A stretch of 64,000 nucleotides of DNA from Candidatus Elulimicrobium sp. (GTDB taxonomy: Bacteria; Patescibacteriota; Minisyncoccia; Phycocordibacterales; UBA918), in NCBI GenBank assembly GCA_020720815.1, contig DYNY01000004.1, positions 1,783-65,782 of the forward strand. The letters run 5' to 3'. Each line of letters opens with the position of its first letter. Positions within the stretch are counted from its first letter, which is position 1. Under the pieces are notes generated by a model. The model was not told where the DNA came from, searched no databases, and saw only the letters and a list, made by a program, of their open reading frames with translations. Of this stretch, positions 2,868 through 44,456 are shown piece after piece. Made by a program: the position numbers and the translations under genes.

Positions 2868-2983
2868 CCGCAGAAAGAAACTTCCGAATCCGAAAGGTGG
2901 GAAGAAGCCCGCGCCGAAGGCGCGGGAGTGGGCAAAAGAGCCCGTCGCTTCGCGACGAATTGGGACGGGACGGGTGTGGCGAA
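2868..2983. repeat. 116-bp inverted repeat, left copy (IR-L), GC-rich
   Basis: Exact reverse complement of 4430-4545. Imperfect similarity continues for about 16 more bp (2984-3000 vs 4413-4429). Confidence 0.9.
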
Positions 2984-3022
2984 ATGCGCGAATTTGTCTC
3001 TTGTTTCGTATCTAAAAGCAAT

Positions 3023-4675
3023 ATGAATATCAAACCAAAATATTTTCTATACGCGCGAAAATCGTCGGAAGATGACGACCGACAAGTGATGTCTATTGAG
3101 GCACAGCTTTTTGAACTGCGAGAATTGGCGCGTAAAGAAAGTCTTGAAATTCTTGAGGAATTTCAAGAGTCGAAAAGCGCAAAGACACCGGGGCGCGAGG
3201 TGTTCGGTGAAATGTTCGCGAAAATTGAGAAGTTAGATGGTGTTGGCATATTGGCGTGGCATCCCGACCGCCTCGCACGTAACAGTATTGACGGTGGACG
3301 AGTAATTTACGCCGTAGACACTCGCAAGGTTGTGTCTTTGCGCTTTCCGACATTTTGGTTTGAACCAACCCCGCAAGGGCTCTTTATGTTGCAAGTGGCG
3401 TTCGGGCAATCTAAATATTACTCGGATAATCTATCTGACAATATCAAGCGCGGCATCCGCCAAAAATTGCGACGAGGCGAATGGTTGAATTTAGCTCCCT
3501 TTGGCTACACCAATAATCCGAAGGTGAGAAATATTGAGCCTCATCCGACAAATGCTCGCGTGGTGAAGTTAGCTTTTCAAGAATACGCCAAAGGGTCGTA
3601 TACTTTTGTTTCGCTCGCGCAATTTTTAGCGGACTTGGGCGTGGTGACTCGCAACAAAACGCCACTTGCCAAAGTTTCCATCAAACGGCTTTTGACACAT
3701 CGGGCGTATCTTGGTTTCGTCAAACATGGTGACGAATGGTTTGATGGAAACTTTGAGCCAATTATTTCTCCGCAATTGTTTGAAGCCGTGCAGAAAGTAT
3801 TGCAAACGAAAGACAGGCCGCGCAAAAGGAAAATCAAGCATGATTTTCCTTTCACTGGACTTTTTCGATGTGGCGAGTGTGGCAGTATGATTTCCGCGCA
3901 GTGGGCGACTGGAAAATCTGGTGGTCGCTATCGGTATTATCGGTGCTCGAAAAAGCGCGGCCACTGTTCGCAAGCGTATGTGCAGGAAAGTGAACTTACG
4001 CGGCAAATCTGTGCACGGCTTCAAACAATCTCGCTTTGCGATCGCTATACCGACTGGATGTTGGACAAAGTGAAAATGTGGGAGCGCGAGGAAATTGGAG
4101 CGTCGCAAAGCGAGGTTCAAAATCTTTCTGATGGAATCAAAGCGAACGAGGAGCGCATGGAAAAACTGCTCTCGGCGTATCTTGATGGCGATGTACCGAA
4201 AGAGGTTTATCTCAAACGAAAAGATGTTCTCATGCGCTCTCTCGCCGCTTTGAAGGAAAAAATGAAAGATTTTGAACGCGGAAGAAATAATTGGGTCGAA
4301 CCCTTGCGGAAATGGATTTTAGATACGAAACAAGCCAATTTTTTGTCCTCCTCCTCTGATTTGTACCAAATCAAGTCGTTCGTCCAAAAAATCGGAACGA
4401 ACCCTCTGGTTCGTGACAAATCCGCCCAGTTCGCCACACCCGTCCCGTCCCAATTCGTCGCGAAGCGACGGGCTCTTTTGCCCACTCCCGCGCCTTCGGC
4501 GCGGGCTTCTTCCCACCTTTCGGATTCGGAAGTTTCTTTCTGCGGAGAGAGGGGGATTCGAACCCCCGATTGGGTTTCCCCAATACTACCTTTCCAAGGT
4601 AGCGCGTTCAACCACTCTGCCATCTCTCCATTATTATTTTACTTCAATAAATGTTACTTTAAATTAAATATTTAA
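3023..4675 (+). CDS. Large serine recombinase (resolvase/invertase catalytic domain, recombinase domain, zinc ribbon, coiled coil)
   Basis: N-terminal YARKSSEDDDRQVMSIEAQ serine-recombinase catalytic motif; zinc ribbon CGECG...CSKKRGHC; recombinase domain. Start chosen at ATG 3023 (MNIKPKYF). There is no stop until 4675, so the reading frame runs through IR-R and tRNA-Ser. The C-terminal ~80 aa are probably not biologically meaningful. Confidence 0.8.
   Translation: MNIKPKYFLYARKSSEDDDRQVMSIEAQLFELRELARKESLEILEEFQESKSAKTPGREVFGEMFAKIEKLDGVGILAWHPDRLARNSIDGGRVIYAVDTRKVVSLRFPTFWFEPTPQGLFMLQVAFGQSKYYSDNLSDNIKRGIRQKLRRGEWLNLAPFGYTNNPKVRNIEPHPTNARVVKLAFQEYAKGSYTFVSLAQFLADLGVVTRNKTPLAKVSIKRLLTHRAYLGFVKHGDEWFDGNFEPIISPQLFEAVQKVLQTKDRPRKRKIKHDFPFTGLFRCGECGSMISAQWATGKSGGRYRYYRCSKKRGHCSQAYVQESELTRQICARLQTISLCDRYTDWMLDKVKMWEREEIGASQSEVQNLSDGIKANEERMEKLLSAYLDGDVPKEVYLKRKDVLMRSLAALKEKMKDFERGRNNWVEPLRKWILDTKQANFLSSSSDLYQIKSFVQKIGTNPLVRDKSAQFATPVPSQFVAKRRALLPTPAPSARASSHLSDSEVSFCGERGIRTPDWVSPILPFQGSAFNHSAISPLLFYFNKCYFKLNI
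4430..4545. repeat. 116-bp inverted repeat, right copy (IR-R)
   Basis: Exact reverse complement of 2868-2983. Its right end overlaps the 3' end of tRNA-Ser by 3 nt. Confidence 0.9.
4543..4629 (-). tRNA. tRNA-Ser (anticodon GGA), type II with a long variable arm
   Basis: Reverse complement reads GGAGAGA..CTACCTTGGAAAGGTAG..GGGGGTTCGAATCCCCC..TCTCTCC-G. Acceptor 7 bp, anticodon loop TTGGAAA, T-arm GGGGG/CCCCC, discriminator G. CCA is not encoded. Confidence 0.85.
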
Positions 4676-12191: not shown

Positions 12192-14126
12192 ATGAACTCT
12201 AACCCAATAAACAACAACCGATCACAGAGTGACCGACTAAACCAGAGGCCACCACATGGGCGCACCAACTACGTTCCCGGCAACAGACCAGTCGGGGCTA
12301 CTTCATCACCTAATAGAAAAACTTCAGCTGGCAGTAATGGACGAAGCAGACGTAACCACCCACAAAAAAGACGTAGTACCACTGCCCCGGCTTTGACCCA
12401 CCGCATGACTACTACTAATGAAAAAAATCCTGTTATTCCTGAAGTTATGGATGATGATACCGTACGTGTAATTCCAGTTTCGGGAGTAGAAGAAATTGGC
12501 CGCAATATGATTATTGTTGAAACCAAAGATGATATTGTTGTAATTGATGCTGGTTTTCAATTCGTTACTGAAGAAAGTAATGCTCCGGGAATAAACTATA
12601 TTCTACCAAACACCCAGTATCTAGAAGAACGAAAACATAAAATTCGTGCTCTCATTGTCACCCACGGCCACCTAGACCACATTGGTGGTATTCCTTTCAT
12701 TATTGAACGTATTGGTAATCCAGCGATTTATACCCAATATCTAACCTCTTTAATGATTCTCAAAAGACAAGAGGAATTTCCTCACATTGAACCAGTGAAC
12801 ATGAACGTTATAAAAGAGGGAGAAAGTTTTACGGTTGGAAAAATGCGTATTAAAACCTTCCCTGTCACTCACTCTATTCCTGATGCTATGGGTGTTTGCG
12901 TAGAAACAAAACATGGCGATGTTGTCATCACTGGTGATATTAAACTGGTTCACGAAGATGGGAAGGTAGTGGTAGAGGAAAGAGCTTCTTGGGAAAAAGT
13001 TGGTCTTAACAAAAACCTGGTCTTACTATGTGATTCAACTAACGCTGACCGGGAAGGTTTTTCTGCTTCTGAGGAACGCGTGTATGAGACTCTAGACAAT
13101 ATTATTGCCTCTGCCACCGGACGTCTGATTATAGGTACTTTTGCCTCTCAATTTGATCGACTCATCAATATTATTAAAACCTGTGAAAAACTGGGTAAGA
13201 AAGTAGTGCTTGAGGGTCGTAGTATTAAAACCAATATTGACATTGCCATTCAAGCAAAATTAATTGAAGTACAACCACATACTTTCATTTCCCCAAGTGA
13301 TATCGGGGATTACCCAAGCGACAAAATTGTTATCTTATCGACCGGTGCTCAAGGAGAGGAGTTTGCTGCTCTAATGCGAATGGCAACCGATAAGCACAAG
13401 TTCGTCACCTTAAACGAACGAGACACAGTGGTTCTATCGTCTTCCATCATTCCAGGTAACGAAATCGCTGTACAAAAGCTGAAAGATAATATTTATCGTA
13501 AGAACGTCCGCGTAGTAAATTACAAAGGCTCACACGTCCACTCCTCTGGACACGGTAACGCCGGCGAACTGGTTTGGATACACCAAGCGGTTAAGCCTAG
13601 GTTTTTAATTCCTGTGCATGGACATCACTACCATCTCAAGAGCCATATGTACGCCGCTATTGAAAATGGTTTTCCTAAAGAAAACATAGTGGTGCCAGAC
13701 AACGGAACTATCATCGATATAAAAAATGGTACTGAGATGATTCGTCATTCCATAAAGATCCCAACCGAGATGGTTTTGGTTGACGGCTTTACTGTCGGAA
13801 CTCGACAAGAAGTTGTCTTGCGCGACCGTCTCAGTCTTGCCCAAGATGGTATGTTTGTAATTATTGCCACTGTCAATAATAAGACCGGCAAGCTACGCAA
13901 ATCACCAGACATTATCTCACGTGGGTTTGTTTATCTAAGAGAAAATCAGCAACTACTATCTGAAGCCCGAGTACTGATTAAGAGAACTGTAGAAAAACAT
14001 ACCGAAAAAATGAATCCGCTTGATCTTGATTACGTAAAAGATCAACTATCTGATGTAGTCAGTGGCTTCTTGATGCAGAAGACACAAAAGACACCTATGG
14101 TTATCCCAGTCTTAATTGGTATATAA
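12192..14126 (+). CDS. rnj: Ribonuclease J (metallo-beta-lactamase / beta-CASP) with a basic N-terminal extension of about 90 aa
   Basis: ALIVTHGHLDHIGG HxHxDH motif and beta-CASP and C-terminal domains. The N-terminus is R/N/P-rich. Alternative starts exist at 12408 and 12447. Confidence 0.85.
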   Translation: MNSNPINNNRSQSDRLNQRPPHGRTNYVPGNRPVGATSSPNRKTSAGSNGRSRRNHPQKRRSTTAPALTHRMTTTNEKNPVIPEVMDDDTVRVIPVSGVEEIGRNMIIVETKDDIVVIDAGFQFVTEESNAPGINYILPNTQYLEERKHKIRALIVTHGHLDHIGGIPFIIERIGNPAIYTQYLTSLMILKRQEEFPHIEPVNMNVIKEGESFTVGKMRIKTFPVTHSIPDAMGVCVETKHGDVVITGDIKLVHEDGKVVVEERASWEKVGLNKNLVLLCDSTNADREGFSASEERVYETLDNIIASATGRLIIGTFASQFDRLINIIKTCEKLGKKVVLEGRSIKTNIDIAIQAKLIEVQPHTFISPSDIGDYPSDKIVILSTGAQGEEFAALMRMATDKHKFVTLNERDTVVLSSSIIPGNEIAVQKLKDNIYRKNVRVVNYKGSHVHSSGHGNAGELVWIHQAVKPRFLIPVHGHHYHLKSHMYAAIENGFPKENIVVPDNGTIIDIKNGTEMIRHSIKIPTEMVLVDGFTVGTRQEVVLRDRLSLAQDGMFVIIATVNNKTGKLRKSPDIISRGFVYLRENQQLLSEARVLIKRTVEKHTEKMNPLDLDYVKDQLSDVVSGFLMQKTQKTPMVIPVLIGI

Positions 14127-27968: not shown

Positions 27969-29885
27969 TTAACTTTTCTGCCACAACATTCTTAAACCAT
28001 TTGATACCACCAAAAGCGTTCCACCTTCATGCCCAATAACACCTAAAGGTAGCGGCAATTTCCAAAGTATAGTTACCACCACCATCAATGCCAAAATACC
28101 GATAGCAAAAACTAGGTTTTGCTTAATAATACTATTAGCTTGCATTGAGAGCTTGCGGGCTCGTAGTAAAGCTCCTAAATCATCTGAAAGCAGAGCCACG
28201 TCAGCCGCCTCAAGGGCCACGTCACTACCAGCCGTCCCCATTGCCACCCCCACGTGCGAGGTAGCCAAAGCCGCCGCATCATTTACTCCATCACCGACAA
28301 ATGATACCTTGCCTTCACTACGTAGTTTATTAATTATCGTCACCTTATCAGTAGGCATTAGGTCAGCAAAAATATCCCCCGGCGCAATTCCTATTTCTTT
28401 TCCCATCTCCTCAGCTACAGTTTTATGATCACCAGTCAACATAACGATTCTTTTGATACCTCGCTGTCTAAGCTCGGCAATGGTAGCTTTGGCTGAGGCT
28501 CTAACCGTATCGGATATACCAATCACGCCATACACCACCTCACTACCGACCACAATCGCTGTCTTTCCTTCAGCTTCTAAGTCTTGCAAAGCTTGCTCCG
28601 TTTTATCATCTACATGGACACCGGTCTCGTCTAACATTTTACGATTACCAGCAAAATACCGTCGCCCCTCTTGGGTCACGTAAACTCCTTTACCGGGAAC
28701 CGCTTCTGCTCTTTCTACCGTCGCTGGTGATATACCCATCTCAGCGGCATGATTAAGAATACTCTTAGCAAGTGGGTGCTCTGAATTTGCTTCCAGGGTG
28801 GCAGCGACCTGCATCAGCTGGTGCTCACTCATACTGATAGCCACCACCCTACTTACTTTCATTTTACCTTCAGTCAAGGTACCAGTTTTATCAAAGGCCA
28901 CTATATCTATATTGGCAAAGGTTTCGAGCGCTGCCCCACCCTTAAAGAGCATTCCCCGTTTGGCTGAAGCCGCTAAAGCAGAAAGTATCGCCGCGGGCAC
29001 ACTAATCACAATTGCACATGGACTGGCTACCACCAAAAGGGTGGCTGCCTTATAGAAAGCTTCAGCATACGGTAGACCAAGCAGAATAAAACCACCCAAG
29101 ACAATTAAAGTCCCAAGTAAAACTAGAATCGTATATCTCTCACCAAACCAATCACTAAAACTTTCACTCGGAGAACGTTTAGCCTGGGCCTCGGTTACCA
29201 AACGAATCATTTGGGCCAAAGTAGAATGACTGGACGTTTTAGTTACCTCAACCCGAAGGACACCGTGCCCATTTACTGTTCCCGCAAAAACATTATCCCC
29301 CGGATCTTTATCCACCGGCACTGATTCCCCTGTCATGGATGACTGATCCACCGCACTAATACCACTCAAAATAATCCCATCCACAGGTACTTTTTCTCCT
29401 GGTTTTATCACAACAACCTGCCCAATCTGAAGTGACTCGACTGATACGCGCTCGATTCCCCCGGCTCCGTTCTCCAGATTAGCCTCATCTGGTCTAAGCT
29501 TCATCAAGGCTACCACCGCTCGCTTGGTATTACCCATCGCATACTCTTCCAAAGTCCCAGCCAAACTGAAGAGGAAAAGCAGAATCGCTCCATCCCGTGC
29601 TTCTCCCACCCCCGCCGCCGCGAGCGCGGCCAAGACCATTAGTAAGTCTATATCAAGCTTTTTTTGTAATAGATTTCCTAGTGCCCCCTTGGCTGCCGGT
29701 ATTCCCCCGGCCAGATAGGCTATAACAAAGGCCATTGCTATATACAAAGCCGAACCTTGAGTAAACTGAAAATATACTCCGATTAACAACCCAATCAAAG
29801 TGATAGCGGTTAAAATACCATTTATGTGCAAAGATTTTCGCTCCCCTTCAAGTTCCTCCATCAAAACTTCAGCTGGATTTTTCAT
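27969..29885 (-). CDS. Heavy-metal-translocating P1B-type ATPase
   Basis: DKTGTLT phosphorylation motif, SPC motif in a TM helix (VASPCAIVIS), GDGVNDAAAL hinge, 638 aa. No N-terminal metal-binding domain. Confidence 0.85.
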   Translation of the reverse strand: MKNPAEVLMEELEGERKSLHINGILTAITLIGLLIGVYFQFTQGSALYIAMAFVIAYLAGGIPAAKGALGNLLQKKLDIDLLMVLAALAAAGVGEARDGAILLFLFSLAGTLEEYAMGNTKRAVVALMKLRPDEANLENGAGGIERVSVESLQIGQVVVIKPGEKVPVDGIILSGISAVDQSSMTGESVPVDKDPGDNVFAGTVNGHGVLRVEVTKTSSHSTLAQMIRLVTEAQAKRSPSESFSDWFGERYTILVLLGTLIVLGGFILLGLPYAEAFYKAATLLVVASPCAIVISVPAAILSALAASAKRGMLFKGGAALETFANIDIVAFDKTGTLTEGKMKVSRVVAISMSEHQLMQVAATLEANSEHPLAKSILNHAAEMGISPATVERAEAVPGKGVYVTQEGRRYFAGNRKMLDETGVHVDDKTEQALQDLEAEGKTAIVVGSEVVYGVIGISDTVRASAKATIAELRQRGIKRIVMLTGDHKTVAEEMGKEIGIAPGDIFADLMPTDKVTIINKLRSEGKVSFVGDGVNDAAALATSHVGVAMGTAGSDVALEAADVALLSDDLGALLRARKLSMQANSIIKQNLVFAIGILALMVVVTILWKLPLPLGVIGHEGGTLLVVSNGLRMLWQKS

Positions 29886-33977: not shown

Positions 33978-34349
33978 ATGGAAACAAAAAAAATCTTAAT
34001 TGTGGAAGACGAAACCGATATTCGAGAAGCCATGGCTGAAGCCATTATTGACGCAGGCTTCATTACTTTAACTGCCAAAAATGGTCAAGTTGGTTTACAA
34101 ATTGCACTTAAAGAACGCCCGGACTTAATTTTACTCGATTTAATGATGCCGGTTTTAAATGGACACGAAACACTCAAAAAACTTCGGGAAGATGCCTGGG
34201 GTAAAAACGCAAAAGTAATTGTTCTAACTGCTATGGATGATGTGACTAACATAGCCACTGCCCATCAAAATCCAATCGAGGACTACATAATAAAAGCCCA
34301 CACTAGTCTTGAAGAACTAATTAAAAAAATTCGACTAGCTTTAATTTAA
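33978..34349 (+). CDS. Single-domain response regulator (CheY-like receiver)
   Basis: ILIVEDE..LILLDLMMP (phospho-acceptor Asp) ..KVIVLTA. 123 aa with no output domain. Confidence 0.85.
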   Translation: METKKILIVEDETDIREAMAEAIIDAGFITLTAKNGQVGLQIALKERPDLILLDLMMPVLNGHETLKKLREDAWGKNAKVIVLTAMDDVTNIATAHQNPIEDYIIKAHTSLEELIKKIRLALI

Positions 34350-34392
34350 CAAAACGACCACTTTCATAAATGAAAGTGGTCGTTTTGTTTTA
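34350..34392. terminator. Bidirectional terminator hairpin (aaacgaccactttcat/atgaaagtggtcgttt) flanked by T-runs
   Basis: Perfect 16-bp stem between convergent genes. Confidence 0.75.
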
Positions 34393-35067: not shown

Positions 35068-35583
35068 CTAACCCAACCCTACGTCTAACATCATCATCAC
35101 CACAAAACCCGCTAGCGCCCCCATGGTAGCCAAGTCGGTATGCCCACCCCGCTGAGATTCCGGTATCAACTCCTCAATCACCACAAACATCATCGCTCCC
35201 GCCGCAAAGTTGAGCGCATAAGGTAATACCGGCGCCGCTACCATTATCAAAGCTGCTCCCGCAACCGCTGCAACAGGCTCTACTATGCCGGAAAATTGCC
35301 CATACATAAAACTTTTCATACGACTAAAGCCTTCTCTTCGTAGTGGTACCGCAATAGCTGTCCCTTCCGGAAAATTTTGGATTCCAATACCAATAGCGAG
35401 AGCTATTGCACCAGCTAAAGTAGCATTTTCAAGATTTAAATAAGCCGCGCCAAAAGCCACTCCAATCGCTAAACCTTCTGGAATATTATGTAAAGTAATG
35501 GCAGAAACCAAAAGCACACTGTGAACCGTAATCCGCAGGACTCTGGTGGGTTTCTCAAAAGAGAAAGAGTTCGGCGACGGCAA
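35068..35583 (-). pseudogene. ZIP-family metal transporter, apparently N-terminally truncated (C-terminal ~170 aa only)
   Basis: [11 protein letters not shown] and [14 protein letters not shown] signature motifs are present, but the roughly 80-90 aa holding the first three TM helices are missing. The upstream sequence is a GC-rich foreign fragment. Confidence 0.5.
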
Positions 35584-36053
35584 TCCGTGAACGGCCGTGC
35601 ATGAGCCTAGACTCAGGAGTAAGTATAGTAAAAAGTTGTCTGATTTTCATATAAAAAGAAATCAGGGTTACCCACGCTGTGGATAACCCTGAAATTTTTT
35701 ACCGCGAATTCAATAATCAAAAGAAAGGATTCAAAAGACTCAAGAATTCAAGGCACGAGGATCACTTCTGCGGAACGAAAGCCGAGGCAGACCAGCAGTG
35801 GGCACAGGCATCGTCGACCCAGTAGCCACCGAACCTGACCTGACCGTCGTTGAAGCAGAAGAACGGGGCGAGCGAGAAGACGCCATCAGCGTCCGGAGCA
35901 TATTCGTCGCCAGCGCAGTCGATCCAGAGATCGTCATAGTGCTGGAGCCGTTCCGGATGCGTCAGGAGCATGATCCCGATGGCGAATGCCCCGAGGTCGA
36001 ACTCGTTCCCGGCGATACATGCAAATTACAACAGAAAATATCAGAAAACCCAA

Positions 36054-36095
36054 CTAGGACTTGAACCGACTAAATGGCTTTAAATAAAGATATTT
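36054..36095. repeat. Degenerate third copy of the tRNA-Gln-T-arm-like repeat (ctaggacttgaacc...)
   Basis: About 65% identical to the repeats at 39001-39056 and 43240-43295, in the same orientation. Confidence 0.35.
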
Positions 36096-36142
36096 TATTT
36101 TTGAAAAAAATCACAAAAGTTCATGCCCATGACGGGTCTTAC

Positions 36143-37150
36143 TTAAAATTGAGCAAAGATCCTTTTATTCAAGCCATCAATTCGAACTTTATTGCCATAT
36201 GGCATTGGTATTTGGGGGTCGGTGTGTCCAAAATTCATATTTTGGATCACCGGAATCTCGACATTGTATTGTCGAACTGCTCGAAGTACTGTTTCTTGTT
36301 GTTGTTTTTGATATTCCACTTTCTGCTCTAGCGAATGTGATTTATCAAATTCCCAAGCTTTTGCTCTACCCACTAATACCCCTTGCACTCGTTCTAAAAC
36401 ACCTCGCTCGCCAAGTGAGCGAAAGACTCTAAACACGTAGTCTGCGGATGGTATTTCTTCGGACGTTTCAAGCATAAGTACAATATTCTCAAACTGCTCG
36501 AGTGCTGGAATCTGTACCCCATGCCGAAGCATTTCATCAACTGACTCCACACATCCACCCCAAAGTACTCCCTCAGTATTTTTGTTACCGTCCCAAATAA
36601 ATCCTTCGTTTTGCCAATGCTGTCTTTTGGTCTTTAATAATGGCACATCATCCCAATCAAGACCTTGATCGTTGTATGTATCTGATGCAATTAATTCAAA
36701 CTCCCTTTCTTCGAACAGGGCGTGTTTAATATACCTAACTGTATATTCATCCATCTCCCCTTGCATTGCAAATTGAGTAAACAGTGAACCACTGTAGCAT
36801 GACGGAATGCCGTTCAAGAAAAGAAAGTTACAAAAAATGGGAATTGTCACTATAGCCAAAAAATGGCTTTGGATTATTCACGAAAGGTTCAGATGGAAGA
36901 TTCATTATATACGTCACTTGGTCATCACCACCAATGGTAGCAATCACTGCTTTGATATCTGAATCTTCAAATGCAGCAACGAGATCTGCTGAACGCTCCT
37001 CGGCAGAAGCACCCAGTTTGGATGTAGTAGGATATTCAACTGGCACTAGACCAAAGACTGTTTCGAGCCGTTCAAGTCCAAGTTTGTATACATCGGGGAA
37101 ACGCCCAAAGCAGCAAAACTTGGTGAGAGAACAGTTACCTTATTTCCTTT
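36143..37150 (-). pseudogene. LD-carboxypeptidase (peptidase S66, LdcA/MccF-like) disrupted by two frameshifts
   Basis: Three consecutive reading frames carry MKFSKLVKGNKVTVLSPSFAA, then FPDVYKLGLERLETVFGLVPVEY...GYSDNSHFL (GYSD nucleophile motif), then the C-terminal 238 aa. The shifts fall in homopolymer runs (ttcccc, aaaaaa). Confidence 0.55.
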
Positions 37151-37184
37151 GACTAACTTAGAAAATTTCATATTCATAAAATAT

Positions 37185-37724
37185 TTAATTACTGGACTTC
37201 AAGTACTCCTCCAAAAAACTAATCTCTCTTTTCAAAATAAAATGTCCTTCAAATTTAGCCGGTATATCTGTCTTCATTTTCGCCAACACTTCTGTCGGTG
37301 GGAGCCAGAGAGTTTCATGACCCTCTTCTATTTCACCTTCTTCTAATGCAGGTTCGCCAATTTCACCAACCACTTCTGCTACATAACAATATGAGATATG
37401 AAGTAGCTTGTATTTATTTCGATATTCAATTGTTATACCAATGGGGCGGATGATACTACAACCACAACCAACCTCTTCTTTTACCTCTCGTTTAAGTGCT
37501 TCTTCAATAGATTCACCAACATCAACACCACCACCTGGTAGTTTGTGATATGTATAGGTCTTTAGATACTGGGTAGCCATTTGACCTTGCTGATTAAGCA
37601 ATATCACTCGAGCACTTTTGCGTAACTGATACTCTGATCCAAGAAGTTCAAACTGATCACTGAATCCAAGTGTACCTTCGCTGATTTCGGCAAGTAATTT
37701 CATGACAATCATTATAGCAAACAC
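37185..37724 (-). CDS. NUDIX hydrolase
   Basis: Nudix box GGVDVGESIEEALKREVKEEVG. Confidence 0.8.
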   Translation of the reverse strand: MFAIMIVMKLLAEISEGTLGFSDQFELLGSEYQLRKSARVILLNQQGQMATQYLKTYTYHKLPGGGVDVGESIEEALKREVKEEVGCGCSIIRPIGITIEYRNKYKLLHISYCYVAEVVGEIGEPALEEGEIEEGHETLWLPPTEVLAKMKTDIPAKFEGHFILKREISFLEEYLKSSN

Positions 37725-37889
37725 AATCCTTTAACACACTTGATGGTCTAGAACACGAAACTATTTTATGGCTCAAAATAAAATTATTTGATTTTAAGCA
37801 GATTTAGCAAAAGCTCGAGTCCATGACTCGTTCTGAATAAACGTTGTAAAATATAGCGATTTTAGGAGACACGGTCTATCTTAGATGAC

Positions 37890-37930
37890 TGCTGGCTGTA
37901 TGGAACGATGTTAGAACTTTTTTGGTAGTG
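37890..37930. repeat. Direct repeat (copy a) flanking the NYN pseudogene
   Basis: tgctggctgtatggaacgatgttagaacttttttg matches 38551-38592 at about 90%. Confidence 0.5.
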
Positions 37931-37973
37931 GGCACTTGATTGTTTATTATAACTAAGGTAAATTATATACATT

Positions 37974-38016
37974 ACGACGAAAAGGGGCCCAAACGGTTAA
38001 TTACCTAAGGCCCCCT
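37974..38016 (-). terminator. Hairpin (aaaaggggcc...ggccccctttt) plus a T-run downstream of the NYN gene
   Basis: GC stem with an 18-nt loop. On the minus strand it is followed by tttttcg. Confidence 0.45.
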
Positions 38017-38018
38017 TT

Positions 38019-38522
38019 TCATTTCCCAATTTTCTTTTGTATGTCCACCTTACTCAGATCGTCAAAATACTGCCTCGTAATTTGTTTATACAAAGAAGAA
38101 GCTCGTTTACCGTCCGGAAAAAGAACTTTCCTAAACTTTTGTTCTTCGATTAAAAAATCGACAAGCATTTTGTAGTCACCATCACCAGACACTAAAACAA
38201 TCTGATCGAATTTCTCTTGCTTATAGAGTCGCTTCATGACTGAAAAGATAATATCTGAATCGACATTCCCTTTCTTAGTTCCTAGCATCGCTGAATTATG
38301 TTCACGAAACACTAGAATGAAACCGGATGCTTGTATTTCTTCATATAGCTATTGATAGGTTTCACCATTTTGAACATACCCAAGATAGTAATAAGCTCTG
38401 TCAACTTGATATAAATCACGTAAGTAAATACGAAAACGCGACAAATCAACCTTCCAAGGATTCGCTGATTTTGTAGTACCCATGAACAAATTTTGTCCAT
38501 CAATGTACGCAATATTACTCAT
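38019..38522 (-). pseudogene. NYN/LabA-like domain protein interrupted by an in-frame TAG
   Basis: MSNIAYIDGQNLF...GYVQNGETYQ-TAG-LYEEIQASGFILVF...VSGDGDY. The two ORFs are in the same frame and the conserved NYN motifs run straight across the stop. Confidence 0.55.
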
Positions 38523-38550
38523 TGCGCTATTATAGCAGATAGCATTTTGT

Positions 38551-38592
38551 TGCTGGCTGTCTGGTACGATATTAGAACTTTTTTGACTAATG
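38551..38592. repeat. Direct repeat (copy b) flanking the NYN pseudogene
   Basis: See 37890-37930. Confidence 0.5.
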
Positions 38593-39000
38593 TATAAATT
38601 CATTGTATTGAAACAATGTTTTAGATGTACTAAAACCGTTCCTTCCAATGAAGCGGACGCCATTTCCCAAAAGAGAGTCGTAATGTCGAAAGTAAGAATC
38701 TCTTCCCTTCATGTCGAGCTTTGCATAGTGCTTGGCGATATCATTCGTCAGAAGCTTCGCTACCCTGTTCTAAAAACCGAATGTTGGACCTTTGAGTCAC
38801 ATGAGGTATTACACAAACCAACCGTCTGGTTCAAGTATCCGAATGGCAAAGTGGAAGACCTCCACTTTATTAGAAAACCCGGAGTGAACCAGCTTGAACC
38901 AATGCCCTGTTACAACACTTTGCCTCCGGAGAAAATAAGATTCCGGTGACACTCTCGACCCACCAACACCTTGCTTCGGCAAGGTGTTTGCTTTTTATAT

Positions 39001-39056
39001 CAAGGACTCGAACCAAATTTATGTTGCTAAATATAGCTGAAATTACTTTGCTGACT
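39001..39056. repeat. Direct repeat, left copy: 45-bp identical core plus imperfect flanks. Contains caaggactcgaacc, identical to the T-arm/3' region of tRNA-Gln.
   Basis: Core ggactcgaaccaaatttatgttgctaaatatagctgaaattactt is identical to 43243-43287. Confidence 0.8.
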
Positions 39057-39290
39057 GTCGTGGTCTTAAAACCTACGTGATGAGACACCGTAAGGCTTTC
39101 TTATGACCCCCTCTACTCCTTATGTGAGGCGTCTCGATCTCTAGCATCCTGTGCTTATATCGCTAAACTAGATTTTGTAGTTATAACAGAGGGCAGTATG
39201 TCACTCTAATGTCTTTACTTGGTCGTGAGGAAAAAGACGATTCCAATGCCAACTACTATAGCAACGCGCTAATAATTAACTTCGTACAAG

Positions 39291-40883
39291 CTATTCGGTT
39301 ACAGTGAACTCAAACATCATGCCCGCTTCAAGGTGTTCAGCGATATGACAATGCGCCATCCATTCCCCTGGATTGGTAGTATCAAGGAGAATATCAACGT
39401 ACTGTCCCGCTGGCACCATCACCGTATCTTTCCAAACTAAATTGTCGTTCATCGAGCCGTTTTCATTTACCACAAGGAATCGTTGACCGTGGAAGTGAAT
39501 TGGGTGTTGCATTGGATGGGCAGATTTTTCGTCATTCGTAATACGCACTTTTACTTTATCTCCTGCCTTGAAGTTCCACGCAATATCCGTATTTACTTTT
39601 CCAGTTTCGGTATCAACAATTTTCCACTTCGTCATGTCTTTAGTCGCCATCTGGTTCATCATGGCCATATCAGTGTCTTCCCATTCAATACCGTCAGGAC
39701 TAGGTGACCCCATCATCATACCTCCCATCATTGAACCATCCGGCATCATGTGCCCGCCCATGCCAGAAGACATACTACCCATCATGTCGATAGTGAGTCT
39801 AAGCTCTTTGTCGACTGGCTTATTGAGGTACTCACTATACGAGTCAAAACTTGCCTTCGCTATATCATTCGTCCGAAGTGTGCCGAAGATGTCACCATGA
39901 TATGGGGAAACAATATCGTTTGAGACAACAACGTTACCGAGGGCATAGGTTTTGTCGGGAGTCTTATGTTCGATAGCATATATGCCTTCATCAGCAAAAA
40001 GTACCTCTACCACCACTCGTTCAGATGGACCGAGGATAACCGAATCTTTCCACTCCTCACGTTCAGTTGCTCCAGCATCCCCACCGACTAACTTGAGCTT
40101 CGTACCTTTGATGCCAAAGTTAAACGGTCGCGCATTCGCCGCATTCGTGAGATAGAAACGAATGACTTCGCCCTTGGTGGCGTTGAGCTGGTAGTTTGTC
40201 TCGCCATTGACGAGCATAACGTTACCATAGCGACCCATGAGGGTGTGATCTGCCTCCTCTTTGCTCAAGTTGATCTTTCCATTCTCGATAAGGACATCGT
40301 CGAGAATAAGCGGCACTTCACGATTCACCTCGTTCCAGTATTTTTCGTCAGTAGCAACAACGAGGTAGTTACCGTACATGCCAAGTTCTTGTTGATAGTC
40401 CTCACGAACGTGCGGATGGTACCAATACATACCAGCATCAGGGAATTTCAATTTGTATGAGAATGTCTCTCCTGGCTTCATTTCCTCCTGTGTGGACTGT
40501 GAACCATCAAACTCATTGTCCATACGCACACCATGCGAATGCAGGAGTGTGTTCATATCAGTGCCATTTTTGAAGTTGATGGTCACCTCTGCACCCTGTG
40601 GCACTTTAATTAAAGGTCCCGGTATCGAACCGTTATATGCGAGCATCTTGTACTTCACGCCGTTAATATCTTTTTCAACGTAACTAGCAGTGAGATCGTA
40701 CGAGTCACCGTTTGTAAGGACGATAACTTCAGAAGTTTTTGCTGGTTCAATTTTGGTTGATGCAGTAGTAGTGTCTTGCGCACTTTCATTACGATAAAGC
40801 ACAATCCCAGCAATGACGATGATGATACCGAGTGCAACTGCAAGAGTTGTTTTATTCATAGTGTAATTCAATTTTATCTCCAT
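39291..40883 (-). CDS. Multicopper oxidase (CopA/CueO/laccase-like) with a Met-rich segment
   Basis: HSHGV, WYHPH, HPIHFHGQRF and HCHIAEHLEAGMM copper-ligand motifs. The Met-rich region MMGSMSSGMGGHMMPDGSMMGGMMMG is also present. N-terminal TM/signal. Confidence 0.85.
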   Translation of the reverse strand: MEIKLNYTMNKTTLAVALGIIIVIAGIVLYRNESAQDTTTASTKIEPAKTSEVIVLTNGDSYDLTASYVEKDINGVKYKMLAYNGSIPGPLIKVPQGAEVTINFKNGTDMNTLLHSHGVRMDNEFDGSQSTQEEMKPGETFSYKLKFPDAGMYWYHPHVREDYQQELGMYGNYLVVATDEKYWNEVNREVPLILDDVLIENGKINLSKEEADHTLMGRYGNVMLVNGETNYQLNATKGEVIRFYLTNAANARPFNFGIKGTKLKLVGGDAGATEREEWKDSVILGPSERVVVEVLFADEGIYAIEHKTPDKTYALGNVVVSNDIVSPYHGDIFGTLRTNDIAKASFDSYSEYLNKPVDKELRLTIDMMGSMSSGMGGHMMPDGSMMGGMMMGSPSPDGIEWEDTDMAMMNQMATKDMTKWKIVDTETGKVNTDIAWNFKAGDKVKVRITNDEKSAHPMQHPIHFHGQRFLVVNENGSMNDNLVWKDTVMVPAGQYVDILLDTTNPGEWMAHCHIAEHLEAGMMFEFTVTE

Positions 40884-41292
40884 CTTTCATTTGATAATTC
40901 TCAAGCTCGTTGTTCGGTTCTCCGTTGACCGTCATAGTCACACTCTGTCCGAACTCTCGGAAATCTTTTCCCCACACGGTGAAGAATTTACCAAGACGTG
41001 TGTCATCTTTAGTGACCCTCGCCGGATACTCGAGGTGAACAATCGGTACGTCATCGTGTGTATGCATCGGCTGGTGTACCGCACCTGAGAGGCCGATATT
41101 TTGAGGGATAGTAACTTTTTCACCCTTCACATATATCTCGAGTTGCGGGTGTGTGTGCATACCCTTCAGTGAGAGTACCTCTCCGTCAGCCGATGTGGGG
41201 GATGCTGATTGATTTGCTTTTCCCCACCAGATCATACTGATGGCAAAAACCACTGTCACCGCAATGACGATGGTCATTGTATGCTTTTTCAT
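40852..41292 (-). CDS. Small secreted His-rich protein (putative metal-binding)
   Basis: Signal/TM segment, HTHPQ and HQPMHTHDD motifs. Overlaps the MCO gene by 32 nt. Confidence 0.35.
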   Translation of the reverse strand: MKKHTMTIVIAVTVVFAISMIWWGKANQSASPTSADGEVLSLKGMHTHPQLEIYVKGEKVTIPQNIGLSGAVHQPMHTHDDVPIVHLEYPARVTKDDTRLGKFFTVWGKDFREFGQSVTMTVNGEPNNELENYQMKDGDKIELHYE

Positions 41293-41816
41293 ATATCACA
41301 AGTTATGGGCTGAATAATGCGTCGTAATAGAAAGTATGTTGCGTACAAAAGTGCCAGAACTCCCACAATGCCAAGTTCCTGTCCTTGAAACGGCAATATG
41401 CTCAAGATCCCAATACCACCAACCGTTGATAGAAGTGCGGTAAGTACAAGTGAACCACAGGCGGCACAGCCGACCCCGAACATTCCCAAGAACACGCCAA
41501 TACCGCTTATAGCAATCCCGCCCCCGCTCAACATCGCTTTTTGTCTCCGATAGAGATAAACGATGAGAGCCACATTCACACCAATCAAAAAAGACGTGGC
41601 TGTTGTCGTTATGGCAGAGAGTGCCGTGAAGTTGGTAGTGATTGAGGTAAGGAGAGTTAGTGGCAAAGTAAATTTATCTCCGAGTGAAGCAGTGTCGCTA
41701 AGCCAAACTAATCGGATGAGTGTAAGGTTGGGAAGCAAAACTGCAAACGCGAATATGACAAATACGACGACAAGTGCGAGGAGAATGTATGGGTACTTTT
41801 GTAGAATAACAGACAT
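41289..41816 (-). CDS. Polytopic membrane protein with an intramembrane CxxC (candidate redox partner or metal-handling protein)
   Basis: About 5 TM helices with GVGCAACGS inside a TM helix. Start overlaps the upstream gene by 4 nt. Confidence 0.35.
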   Translation of the reverse strand: MSVILQKYPYILLALVVVFVIFAFAVLLPNLTLIRLVWLSDTASLGDKFTLPLTLLTSITTNFTALSAITTTATSFLIGVNVALIVYLYRRQKAMLSGGGIAISGIGVFLGMFGVGCAACGSLVLTALLSTVGGIGILSILPFQGQELGIVGVLALLYATYFLLRRIIQPITCDI

Positions 41817-41819
41817 GGT

Positions 41820-42584
41820 TTACGAATCTTTTAACGCTGTTTCTATAAGTTGCTTCACTGCTTCATATGGCTGTGCGCCATTTATAGGGAACTTGGTTCC
41901 ATCGGGTGCGACAAAGATACTCCATGGCGTTCCTCGTCCTCCGGTAGCCACTGCGTTAGCGAGATCATCTGCCACATGTTCTGCATACGTACCACTGCTT
42001 AGACATTCGTTGAATGTTTTGACATTGATGCCAACGAATTCGGCAATTTTTGGTAATTCAGCAAGATCAAGTCGGTCATTAGAGGGTGTGATCTCGTAGA
42101 GTCGGTCTGCATATTTCCAAAATGCATCGTTGCCACCTTGTGCACCAGCACACTCAAGCGCTTCTGCTTCTTTCCGAGCTTTAGAATGCAGTTGGTCGAG
42201 TGGAAAGTGGCGGTACACCCATGCAACTTTCCCGGTATCTCCATACTCATCCATTACTTGCTTCATAGTTTCATGGAGACGTTTGCAGAATGGGCATTCG
42301 GTATCAGAGTACTCGACGACCTTTATTGGAGCGTCAGAATTTCCTCGGACATGGTCATCGCCAGACACTACTTTTATATTTGCGAGTGCTTTGTTTGAAT
42401 CTTCAGCAATCTGTGCGGTCGGCACTACTGCAGTTGGTGCACTGGGAATGGTGTTGTTTTTAAGACCAAACAAAACTGCTCCGGCAATAAGTGTTCCAGC
42501 GATGACTATTGCTATAGGTATAGAGAATGCCTGGACGGTCGATTTTTGAACCGATTGAATAGGTTCACTATGTTCTTTATTCAT
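41820..42584 (-). CDS. DsbA-family thioredoxin-fold oxidoreductase, membrane-anchored
   Basis: CPFC active site (DTECPFCKRLHE), N-terminal TM, 254 aa. Confidence 0.75.
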   Translation of the reverse strand: MNKEHSEPIQSVQKSTVQAFSIPIAIVIAGTLIAGAVLFGLKNNTIPSAPTAVVPTAQIAEDSNKALANIKVVSGDDHVRGNSDAPIKVVEYSDTECPFCKRLHETMKQVMDEYGDTGKVAWVYRHFPLDQLHSKARKEAEALECAGAQGGNDAFWKYADRLYEITPSNDRLDLAELPKIAEFVGINVKTFNECLSSGTYAEHVADDLANAVATGGRGTPWSIFVAPDGTKFPINGAQPYEAVKQLIETALKDS

Positions 42585-42656
42585 GTATTTAGAGGGTTAG
42601 ACAAATAACGTCGATACAGCAAAAATTGGTGTTACAACAACACCCTAGTGGCGACG

Positions 42657-43097
42657 TTAGTATGTCTTAGAATGGAGAATGCCTCGAGCGAATGCTAATC
42701 GAAGCGGATTGTATATGCTGACGTTTGGATGTTCTCGTGCATATTGTTTATAGCGGAGTGCAAAAACGTTTAAGTTGAGCTTTGGTATAGCAAAGAAATC
42801 TGAGAAGACAAAAGCCACAGCTACCCCAATAAAGAGAAGTGCGAGAAAGTCTTGGAAGCTTTGTGGAATACCGACGAGCGTACTTTTCCAAAGTTCCATG
42901 TGATCGTTTACTCCAACATCGCAACATGAGTTTAAGATTGCTGAAGAAGCTTTATGGCTCGAATGAGTACCCATATCCGCATGAGCTGGTGTTGCGTGAA
43001 TAAAGCTGATACAAAGGAAACCAACAATAAGCGAAGACAAGATTGTCCCACTCACAATAGTTAGTATCTGAGATGTAAATACTGACAGGAACTTCAT
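42657..43097 (-). CDS. Hypothetical membrane protein
   Basis: 146 aa with 2-3 TM helices and a CC pair (NSCCDVG). Confidence 0.3.
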   Translation of the reverse strand: MKFLSVFTSQILTIVSGTILSSLIVGFLCISFIHATPAHADMGTHSSHKASSAILNSCCDVGVNDHMELWKSTLVGIPQSFQDFLALLFIGVAVAFVFSDFFAIPKLNLNVFALRYKQYAREHPNVSIYNPLRLAFARGILHSKTY

Positions 43098-43159
43098 AGG
43101 TTGATTAATTTTAACAGAAAAAACTCGCAGTGTGTAGTCTCTTCATACAAACAAAAATC

Positions 43160-43190
43160 ACCCTTTCGGGTGATTTTCGTTCTGGATACT
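43160..43190. terminator. Hairpin aaaatcaccc-tttc-gggtgatttt with flanking T-tracts
   Basis: Perfect 10-bp stem with a T-run on both sides. It could terminate in either direction. Confidence 0.5.
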
Positions 43191-43239
43191 GCTCTCAGCA
43201 GGTATGCAATAGCGGAATAGATCCTATGTGATTTTAGAC

Positions 43240-43295
43240 CTAGGACTCGAACCAAATTTATGTTGCTAAATATAGCTGAAATTACTTGGCTGGCC
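43240..43295. repeat. Direct repeat, right copy
   Basis: See 39001-39056. Confidence 0.8.
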
Positions 43296-43385
43296 GACTC
43301 GGGCTAGAACCGCACAATGCCAAACCATGCTTGACGATTTTAGTATATTTTCAAATTCAATTTCGACGCGTCTCGTGCACTAAAA

Positions 43386-43865
43386 TTATGTAATGATTAT
43401 ATGCCCTGGATTATTGGGGTCTACGTCAATATTTATGTCACGATCAAGATTATTTATTTCAATTGTGTGACTAATATTTAAAGTTAAATATCCTTGAAAA
43501 ATGACTCGGTTGGGTATTTGTATATCTATATGAAACTTCCTTGGGTCTCTACTAACTACTGATGTATGGTGACCGACATATCCATCCTTTTTTAACTTAA
43601 ATTCAATAACTGTTTTGTCATCTTCATACATATCTATATCTACGACTTCAGGATTCTGATCCCATCGACAGACAAACTCTAAGTTCTCACTAGGAGAGGT
43701 TAGAGTAAGTACCGGCAGAAGACCATTCGGTTTTCTGTCACTCTCAGGAAAAGCATTAATTTCAAAAAGGTCGTCACGGTACTCCACTTCAAGATTAATA
43801 TCAAAAATCTTATCCGTAAAAATTCTATCTTTTCTGTTATTAAAAGTTAAATACATCATAAACAC
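43386..43865 (-). CDS. Hypothetical protein
   Basis: 159 aa, AT-rich (native-like composition). Confidence 0.35.
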   Translation of the reverse strand: MFMMYLTFNNRKDRIFTDKIFDINLEVEYRDDLFEINAFPESDRKPNGLLPVLTLTSPSENLEFVCRWDQNPEVVDIDMYEDDKTVIEFKLKKDGYVGHHTSVVSRDPRKFHIDIQIPNRVIFQGYLTLNISHTIEINNLDRDINIDVDPNNPGHIIIT

Positions 43866-43882
43866 CTAATGCGAGTAAATTA

Positions 43883-44293
43883 CTATTCTGACTTCTTAAC
43901 AGGGTCAGCACCGTCTCCACCCTTACCGTAGTCCCACAAATAAGTCCCGTCAGGGAGTCGAGTATTTGGAACACCTAAAATTTCAAGAGGACTCCTTCCT
44001 CCCCGTCCTCCTCTATCAGCCTGCCCCGCTTCACCACCTTCTCCTCCCATCGCAAAAGCATTATCACCAACAACCTCAGCACTACCGCCATCTCCTCCTT
44101 TACCTCCAGGACCAGCCCCGCCGCCAATCCCGCCGACAGCAACTGAATTATTACCGTTCACTTTTGCATCACCACCCTTACCTCCATTATGAGTAGGTTT
44201 AATAGTCTTACCTATGCCAAATACATGATAAAGGATTAGACCACCACCTATTGTTATCACTAATCCGAGTAAAATTTCTACTAGATATTCCAT
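43883..44293 (-). CDS. Gly-rich low-complexity membrane-anchored protein
   Basis: N-terminal TM segment, then GGKGGDGG / GGEGGEAG repeats. Confidence 0.35.
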   Translation of the reverse strand: MEYLVEILLGLVITIGGGLILYHVFGIGKTIKPTHNGGKGGDAKVNGNNSVAVGGIGGGAGPGGKGGDGGSAEVVGDNAFAMGGEGGEAGQADRGGRGGRSPLEILGVPNTRLPDGTYLWDYGKGGDGADPVKKSE

Positions 44294-44385
44294 AAGTTTA
44301 TTATATCTCTTTCTGTACTTTTGCTAAGTCTATGCGAAATTAGATAAGCATTACATTAACGCTCTTCGTGCTACGTACGAGTTTG

Positions 44386-44456
44386 CTGGGGTACAAGGAC
44401 TCGAACCTCGATAGGCGGTACCAGAAACCGCAGTCCTACCATTAGACGATACCCCA
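44386..44456 (-). tRNA. tRNA-Gln (anticodon CUG)
   Basis: Reverse complement reads TGGGGTA-TC-GTCT-AATGGTA-GGAC-T-GCGGT-TTCTGGT-ACCGC-CTAT-CGAGG-TTCGAGT-CCTTG-TACCCCA-G. All stems pair. Confidence 0.85.

Follow-up and report, generated by a model that had tools for sequence, protein, structure and literature searches.

The present analysis concerns a stretch of 64,000 nucleotides (the window) from contig DYNY01000004.1 of Candidatus Elulimicrobium sp., and within it the 8.4 kb that follow the gene for tRNA-Gln(CUG) (44385..44456 on the minus strand, recognized by ARAGORN and by the Rfam tRNA model with 54 bits), where an initial annotation had proposed that foreign segments, delimited by three copies of a short repeat, were accumulated in tandem behind the tRNA. 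Moving away from the tRNA gene, all on the minus strand, the first genes (43386..44293) encode a Gly-rich membrane protein (43883-44293) and a 159-aa hypothetical protein (43386-43865), and no Pfam match was found in either. These genes are followed by a truncated copper/disulfide block (39147..43210, with its genes at 39.3-43.1 kb), in which Pfam and the lengths of the products distinguish a 146-aa membrane protein, a DsbA-like protein, a 175-aa membrane protein, a 146-aa protein and a multicopper oxidase. A decayed block recognized through Pfam comes next (36143..38663), in which the NYN gene is in two pieces (38349-38663 and 38019-38312), the Nudix gene is intact (37185-37724), and the LdcA gene is again in two pieces (36828-37046 and 36143-36859). 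The region closes with orphan fragments (35068..36040, minus strand), made up of a GC-rich stretch at 35740-36040 (57% GC) and the C-terminal half of a ZIP transporter at 35068-35583. This content, with its copper/DsbA block, split NYN, Nudix, split LdcA and partial ZIP, is as the initial annotation had described it.

Two copies of a repeat punctuate these blocks, both of them in the orientation of tRNA-Gln, i.e., on the minus strand, and less than 5.5 kb downstream of it. The 45-nt core, GGACTCGAACCAAATTTATGTTGCTAAATATAGCTGAAATTACTT, has two exact occurrences in the window, at 39004-39048 (copy A) and 43243-43287 (copy B), an agreement reached in 0 of 100 shuffles, and the pair extends to 51 nt at 98% identity by BLAST (39003..39053 and 43242..43292) and to 74 nt at 86% by repeat search. 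On the minus strand the core terminates in the T-arm motif GGTTCGAGTCC, which is where copy B ends, and in copy A a 14-mer, CAAGGACTCGAACC (39001-39014), is identical to positions 44394-44407 in the T-arm of tRNA-Gln and is then followed by GATATAAAA. Both the identical core and the 14 contiguous nucleotides shared with the tRNA had been noted previously, and both were confirmed. The motif GGTTCRANTCC was found five times in the window, against 0.22 expected, always on the minus strand: in tRNA-Ser, in tRNA-Gln, in A, in B and at 36057.

The earlier view of the repeats as duplications of the tRNA 3' end did not hold, given that the identity with the tRNA is limited to the 14 nt of the T-arm, and the acceptor strand is unrecognizable in the repeats of the window. 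The remaining 34 nt of the repeat are a spacer outside the tRNA identity, perfectly kept between A and B. Beyond the T-arm, on its 3' side, the sequences of A and B are unrelated (p=0.375), as is expected for junctions. The only homologue of the core found beyond this strain is in L100 (3891-3851, 83% identity, E 5.5e-5; loci fetched for comparison are numbered here with L), where tRNA-Gln and a structured unit (R1, described below) immediately precede it, and GATATAAAA after the T-arm is common to this homologue and copy A. An exact search with one 24-mer of the core returned 0 matches in viral, metagenome and genome collections, the metagenome collection being evidently without the small JGI contig that carries the repeat. 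The Logan SRR1560848 and JGI 3300000234 assemblies of this strain are identical to the window and are broken at the tRNA and at the repeats, as would be expected for k-mer assembly.

A degenerate third copy had also been placed at 36054-36095. As a copy of the repeat this site was rejected, since only a 14-mer, CTAGGACTTGAACC, matches, at 13 of 14 positions (0.03 such matches are expected per window), while the flanks are no more similar to those of A or B than shuffled sequence is (p 0.4-0.8), and the ungapped identity of the site to the core is 29/49, where the null for the best chance match has a mean of 27.8. What remains there is a T-arm-like sequence, C (GGTTCAAGTCCTAG; 36054..36067, minus strand), which lies 76 nt after the stop of LdcA and is part of the motif excess just mentioned; its standing as the relic of a third module is doubtful. 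A candidate fourth copy from the repeat search, at 37820-37857, was discarded as well, its identity of 28/49 being within the null for the best chance match. No significant structure was found when the three repeats were folded as RNA (z -0.8 to -1.9), Rfam 15 returned nothing at E<=5 for A, B, C or the adjoining box, and no promoter-like site was found in the core.

The box is the element that gives the repeats their context. Immediately 5' of copy B, in the sense of the minus strand, and at the right end of the first gene module, lies a non-coding sequence of approximately 95-97 nt (43287..43384, minus strand; nhmmer E 5e-25), with the layout GCACGAGACGC...GGTCAAGCA...GGTTCTAGCCCGAG.CGGCCAGC, which is kept in L008 and L014. 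A pattern derived from its invariant ends was found in 22 metagenome contigs, and a hidden Markov model (HMM) of the box detects 32 instances among the fetched loci (e.g., L095:2399-2496, and L092:1997-2092 and 2821-2917), and the box is present in at least 24 other contigs of the Candidate Phyla Radiation (CPR), at the ends of variable gene modules. Its 3' end resembles the 3' end of tRNA-Gln, and its start repeats GCACGAGACGC, a motif which is also present at the left ends of modules; in most of the other contigs, direct repeats, GTNACTTTTGTNACTTTTT, precede it. One or a few genes are enclosed by a pair of like-oriented boxes in L092, L096, L089 and L103, which indicates that the modules are organized in arrays. 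The possibilities that the box is a structured RNA or a coding sequence were both rejected, the former because there is no consensus fold on the strand tested, and the latter because the copies differ in length by 1 nt.

A strongly diverged box precedes copy A, at the right end of the copper module (39049..39145, minus strand). It is identical to the canonical box at 47 of 97 positions in register, and although the HMM does not detect it, the relationship is supported by global alignment (p<2e-4) and by the first 72 nt alone (p=0.002). Given that the 97 nt on the 5' side of A align with the box in register, both A and B have the layout of a box followed by a core, and they are not independent repeats, each being the terminal part of a module-end unit of box plus core. 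The boxes of A and B have diverged to 48% identity while their cores are identical.

The position of these units behind tRNA-Gln gains its meaning from related genomes. The DnaX protein of the window is 70-78% identical to proteins of CPR metagenome-assembled genomes (MAGs) of the Paceibacteria/Kaiserbacteria type, and the order hyp140-PBP5-DnaX-HisPhos-tRNA-Gln is kept in L006-L013, while past tRNA-Gln nothing of the window recurs in these loci except three short pieces. As the gene order is kept up to tRNA-Gln and then lost, in about 10 related genomes in all, the 3' flank of this gene is a hypervariable site in the lineage, and the suggestion that it is a hotspot of insertion was borne out. 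Partial copies of the tRNA are found in the same flank: L012 has one that runs from the anticodon arm to the 3' end (12725-12778), 60 nt past the gene, L010 has a 21-nt copy of the 3' end (12604-12632), and L100 has two successive partial copies. In L008, an 18-nt copy of the 3' end (12648-12665) lies 180 nt past the gene and is followed by the Gly-rich gene of the window, the stretch 44403-43894 of the window being 80% identical in DNA to L008 12644-13155, also beside tRNA-Gln. A distal direct repeat of the tRNA 3' end, which is a defining mark of tRNA-anchored islands, is thus present in L012, L010, L008 and L100, and is absent in the window. The LdcA gene, for its part, is module cargo beside the box in L095 and L096, and a 72-nt fragment of its 3' end follows tRNA-Gln in L007. 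The segment from HisPhos to tRNA-Gln is inverted in L014 (9640-13420), which places the tRNA on the opposite strand, and a reversed box is found beside HisPhos; this segment contains an IS200-like Y1 transposase, an HIT protein and an AAA_33 kinase.

In most of the other contigs the box is only the beginning of a longer module end, which continues with a terminator-like hairpin, a strand complementary to the tRNA 3' end, a small hairpin, a three-way junction and, finally, a copy of the tRNA from the T-loop to the 3' end. The three-way junction was modeled as R1, a covariance model (CM) of about 100 nt. In the seed alignment, 86.9% of the cells are paired, against 33-50% with the partners slid, and 18 of the 30 pairs show compensatory changes, a number reached by 0 of 500 shuffles; over 25 hits, in an alignment that was fitted to the model, the values are 87.8% of the cells and 29 of the 30 pairs. 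R1 is absent from Rfam 15, and nothing was found at E<=1 for the box and R1 in ten related contigs. Instances include L010:12536-12634, L088:10238-10341, L101:554-658, L086:388-476, L094:1067-1170, L090:1365-1471 and L108:16262-16364, and there are others. The tRNA-like tail of R1 matches the neighboring tRNA, being of the Gln type in L010, L008, L086, L088, L101 and L100, of the Lys type beside tRNA-Lys in L090, and of the Ser type where it ends the tRNA-Ser element of L108. R1 could be a structured RNA of a new kind, or else a site in single-stranded DNA. The window holds no intact R1, and a CM search of it with the filters off yielded only chance hairpins; judging by its position and the shared T-arm, the 45-nt core may be a shortened, lineage-specific R1 tail that has kept only the part of the T-arm.

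The opposite end of the modules also bears a mark. Directly after the 3' end of tRNA-Gln, the window has the left-end motif AAACTCGTACG-TA-GCACGAAGAGCGTTAATG... (44340..44384, minus strand); in its conserved form, CAACTCGTGC-TA-GCACGAAGAGCGTTAATG (44384-44345 in the window), it holds the near-perfect palindrome CTCGTGC-TA-GCACGAG. This motif follows the 3' ends of tRNAs, boxes or R1 units in L008, L087, L092, L096, L097 and L100, and a tRNA-Ser version of it occurs in L108, L110 and L115; sites of the palindrome elsewhere are found at L092:~2093-2140, L096:~3216 and L108:16100-16144. The palindrome is a candidate recombinase or operator site. Upstream of the tRNA-Ser in L108 (16240-16760), there are two or three tandem units that combine the 5' part of tRNA-Ser, as far as the anticodon loop, with an R1-type structure, a mirror image of the 3'-end copies in the other loci.

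The copper block is 67-79% identical in DNA to L108, L109, L113 and L114, and homologues of its oxidase in CPR contigs are 77-87% identical. A longer version of the homologous cluster is found in L108, L109 and L113, next to a large serine recombinase; among its genes are those for a beta-propeller protein, DUF7282, CopA, HMA-DsbD and a cupredoxin. The homology of the window runs from 43210 to 39147, where it stops inside the DUF7282 gene, and the beta-propeller gene is missing, which means that the window holds a truncated fragment. In L108, the whole element of approximately 16 kb lies between tRNA-Ser and a unit of box plus R1-type structure that ends in a copy of the tRNA-Ser 3' end, so that one and the same element brings together a serine recombinase, tRNA targets and ends of the box type. 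The left end of the block in the window consists of a hairpin and a terminator hairpin (43153..43210, minus strand), 86% identical to L017 11977-12035, which belongs to a distant Taylorbacteria MAG and is located just 3' of its tRNA-Gln; its first 37 nt in the window recur without a change at the start of contig L109 (L109:1-60), upstream of the copper genes. The hairpin, ATACCnGC...GCnGTAT, shows a compensatory change and is shared by distant CPR lineages.

The tetranucleotide composition of the copper block is that of a foreign segment, with 0 of 300 random chunks from the rest of the window as deviant, while the other three segments are not outliers (fractions of 0.11-0.26). The statement that no integrase remains is true within 35-44.5 kb, and no remnant of the recombinase of the copper element was found near copy B, but the relatives of the block adjoin a serine recombinase and the window itself encodes one. 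This ORF (open reading frame) of 592 aa (2897-4675, plus strand; Resolvase, Recombinase and Zn_ribbon_recom) shares about 35% identity with the copper-element recombinases of the relatives, and lies 35 kb from the array. Its 3' end overlaps tRNA-Ser(GGA) (4542-4629, minus strand), and genes for an APH-type kinase and His_Phos adjoin it; the region is possibly another integrated element. Among the other loci, transposases are singletons, namely the IS200-like gene of L014 and a gene in L095 that, read from the sequence, is probably of the IS30 type. The window also encodes a homologue of CopA-type P-type ATPases (27975-29585, minus strand), 36% identical to the CopA of the L113 copper element, and copper export was thus not lost with the truncation of the island. 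Outside the region, a perfect 20-bp inverted repeat with a 2-nt loop (34348-34389) separates the genes of a response regulator and a zinc finger; it is probably a bidirectional terminator and the source of weak, spurious Rfam matches.

Taken together, the anatomy of the region, its homologies and the break in synteny favor the view, taken here with reasonable though not firm confidence, that gene modules were inserted one after another behind tRNA-Gln and that the 8.4 kb are the fossil of such an array, a kind that is common in CPR bacteria similar to Paceibacteria. In this view, A and B are what is left of the junctions at the far ends of the first two modules. From the tRNA outward, the array would comprise module 1, small and intact in appearance, with the left-end motif, its two genes, the canonical box and then repeat B; the truncated copper module (module 2), with the diverged box and then repeat A; and the NYN/Nudix/LdcA pseudogene block, as far as the relic C, followed by the orphan fragments. 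Modules would have entered as circles, through site-specific recombination at or near the T-loop and 3' end of the tRNA or, alternatively, at the tRNA-like end of the previous module, and every insertion would have displaced the older modules outward, its far end being marked by a repeat similar to the tRNA 3' end. The enzyme responsible would most likely have been a large serine recombinase supplied by full-length elements such as the copper element of the relatives. As for any present-day activity, the modules of the window, which are without a recombinase, would now be immobile, or mobilizable only in cis or in trans. The earlier proposal of tandem accretion at tRNA-Gln is thus upheld in outline, by the break in synteny and the partial tRNA copies of the relatives, and altered in its parts, since the repeats are vestigial module-end junctions and the third copy is doubtful. 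The suggestion that they are diverged attP arms came closest to the data among the ideas put forward previously, with an attachment (att) function that stays putative.

Several points weigh against this view. Pfam and homology scans found no recombinase in 35-44.5 kb, and the region is thus without the tyrosine or serine integrase expected inside a tRNA-anchored island, as the copper block is without the Resolvase, Recombinase and Zn_ribbon_recom domains of an integrative element of the large-serine-recombinase type. No family of tyrosine or serine recombinases is among the 25 listed as matching two or more of 112 ORFs located near boxes, R1 units or tRNA-Gln in other loci. Neither an empty site nor a circular junction was found, all contigs recovered through exact-protein look-ups being identical to the window, with breaks at the repeats. 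Statistically, homology between the core and the R1 tail could not be demonstrated (no match with the CM, and E=13 with nhmmer). It is also odd, for the simple decay of a tRNA end, that the tRNA identity of A and B ends after 14 nt while the adjoining 34 nt are perfectly kept, nor does this view account for a 45-nt core that stays perfectly identical next to a box so strongly diverged. Exchange by serine recombinases takes place at a 2-bp core, and these enzymes alone do not generate direct repeats of 45 bp. The significance of C is weak.

A more far-reaching reading of the same evidence is tentative, and would see in the box, R1 and the left-end near-palindrome the parts of an undescribed cassette system of Paceibacteria, anchored at tRNA genes (Gln, Ser and Lys), in which small modules are stacked and each of them regenerates a target similar to a tRNA 3' end. 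In such a system, R1, with its 5' arm pairing with the 3'-end copy of the target tRNA, would be the functional RNA or single-stranded-DNA part of a machinery of recombination or insulation, and not debris, and A and B would be a minimal variant of the recombination site.

Among the explanations that dispense with site-specific insertion, the one that survives best, although it is rather unlikely, is homology-driven cassette exchange, in which the tRNA-Gln gene, the box and the core act as portable homology, and DNA acquired by natural transformation, or circles excised from between two repeats, are inserted by RecA-type recombination, such that A and B would have arisen when a copper fragment with a box and core of its own recombined into a resident box and core. 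The two junctions do have the look of two related units, being identical over 45-51 nt and homologous but diverged on the side of the box; the copper block is a fragment with internal deletions and not a complete element; no recombinase is found in the region or among the 25 families of neighboring ORFs; and DprA is encoded nearby (L001). CPR bacteria are thought to rely on DNA uptake, which also counts in favor of this mechanism, whereas a homology of 45-51 bp is short for efficient RecA recombination. On the other hand, the tail of R1 takes the identity of the neighboring tRNA, whether Gln, Lys or Ser, and the near-palindromic left-end motif lies exactly at the junctions, which together point to a sequence-specific mechanism, and full-length relatives carry a serine recombinase.

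A role of the core as a cis-acting signal, in RNA or DNA, is in turn improbable; the core would then be a regulatory or processing element repeated after operons, such as a tRNA-like handle for RNase P/Z or an insulator or terminator, with a link to the borders of islands that would be secondary. Such a function might account for the perfect conservation of 45 nt beside a box that is down to 48% identity, for the intergenic location of both copies after minus-strand genes and near hairpins, and for the strongly covarying structured element that the relatives hold at the corresponding position. The repeats themselves, however, have no significant fold (z -0.8 to -1.9), no Rfam match and no promoter-like site in the core, there is but one homologue outside this strain, and the window is without an intact R1. 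Finally, a coincidental similarity to the T-arm, with the core as a generic, genome-wide dispersed repeat (REP/MITE-like) unrelated to islands, is very improbable, the dispersed repeat being an objection that the initial annotation had raised against its own proposal; this reading is weak and largely refuted, for even with a genome inspected over 64 kb and an AT-rich region that inflates weak similarities (the 36053 and 37820 candidates are within the null), there are only two copies in the window, exact against 0 of 100 shuffles and both within 5.5 kb downstream of tRNA-Gln in its orientation, the box is attached to each, the 24-mer tested has no exact match in the three public collections, and the sole homologue lies behind tRNA-Gln.

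While tandem islands anchored at tRNA genes are well known, no description of the box, of R1 with its tRNA-specific tail or of the left-end palindrome was found in Rfam or in the literature searched, and these are apparently new elements, common to CPR lineages, of which the window carries only degraded versions. The CPR bacteria, or Patescibacteria, have tiny genomes, and their gene exchange is poorly understood. In the window and its relatives, the flank of tRNA-Gln is a landing pad for small adaptive modules, and the cargo across the loci includes copper resistance, kinases of the antibiotic-phosphotransferase type, cell-wall peptidases and defense-like genes. The sequence and structure of the module ends, being common to distant CPR lineages, provide probes (the box, R1 and the left-end motif) for islands in metagenomes, and also make up a candidate recombination system that can be tested, so this family merits a dedicated survey. 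With regard to the original finding, the value of the analysis is mainly corrective: the repeats are real marks of junctions, they are vestiges of a larger unit, and the island has decayed.

Among the known systems, the integrons differ in that no IntI-type tyrosine integrase and no attC consensus (R''/R') were found here, the anchor is a tRNA and not attI, and the box is without a conserved fold on the strand tested; what is similar are the small and mostly promoter-less modules, each with a conserved and partly structured end of about 100 nt, and the single anchor site. A second likeness is with the cis-mobilizable elements (CIMEs) and the accretion at the att sites of streptococcal integrative and conjugative elements (ICEs), at least as this concept is cited in PMC3146451 and PMC5704250. 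Five copper/disulfide genes, and no recombination or transfer genes, lie between A and B, which by analogy with CIMEs may be viewed as att-like direct repeats around a block of genes that has no integration or transfer functions of its own, in tandem at one site. Relative to the concept as cited there, the copper block is visibly truncated, the flanking sites are putative, and no partner ICE or integrative and mobilizable element (IME) was identified.

The tycheposons of Prochlorococcus (Hackl et al., 10.1101/2020.12.28.424599), which together with the Dehalococcoides islands described below are the nearest precedents for the array, are found in streamlined genomes, in islands beside tRNA genes and with flanks of partial tRNAs, and in these islands successive integrations displace the older elements inward, leaving degenerate remnants and extra partial tRNAs scattered. 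They carry tyrosine recombinases and replication modules, however, none of which were found here, and their end sequences are unrelated to those of the array.

The ssrA-associated genomic islands (ssrA-GIs) of Dehalococcoides (McMurdie et al. 2011, PMC3146451) are tandem islands downstream of a single tRNA-like gene, with direct repeats of its 3' end, an insertion point in the T-loop, and a large CcrB-like serine recombinase as the integrase. The repeat is immediately preceded, on its upstream side, by a conserved extra motif that cannot be aligned with the gene, and many of the islands are without an integration module and were proposed to be mobilizable in cis (PMC3146451). Unlike these islands, the target here is tRNA-Gln (and Ser and Lys in the relatives), there is no recombinase inside the array, and the repeats of the window keep only the T-arm, whereas those of the ssrA-GIs are the full 20-nt 3' end; neither the box of about 95 nt nor the covarying three-way junction of the relatives is described for the ssrA-GIs. 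What the two systems share is the tandem layout, the site in the T-loop, the extra motif that precedes the repeat, and the existence of islands without an integrase.

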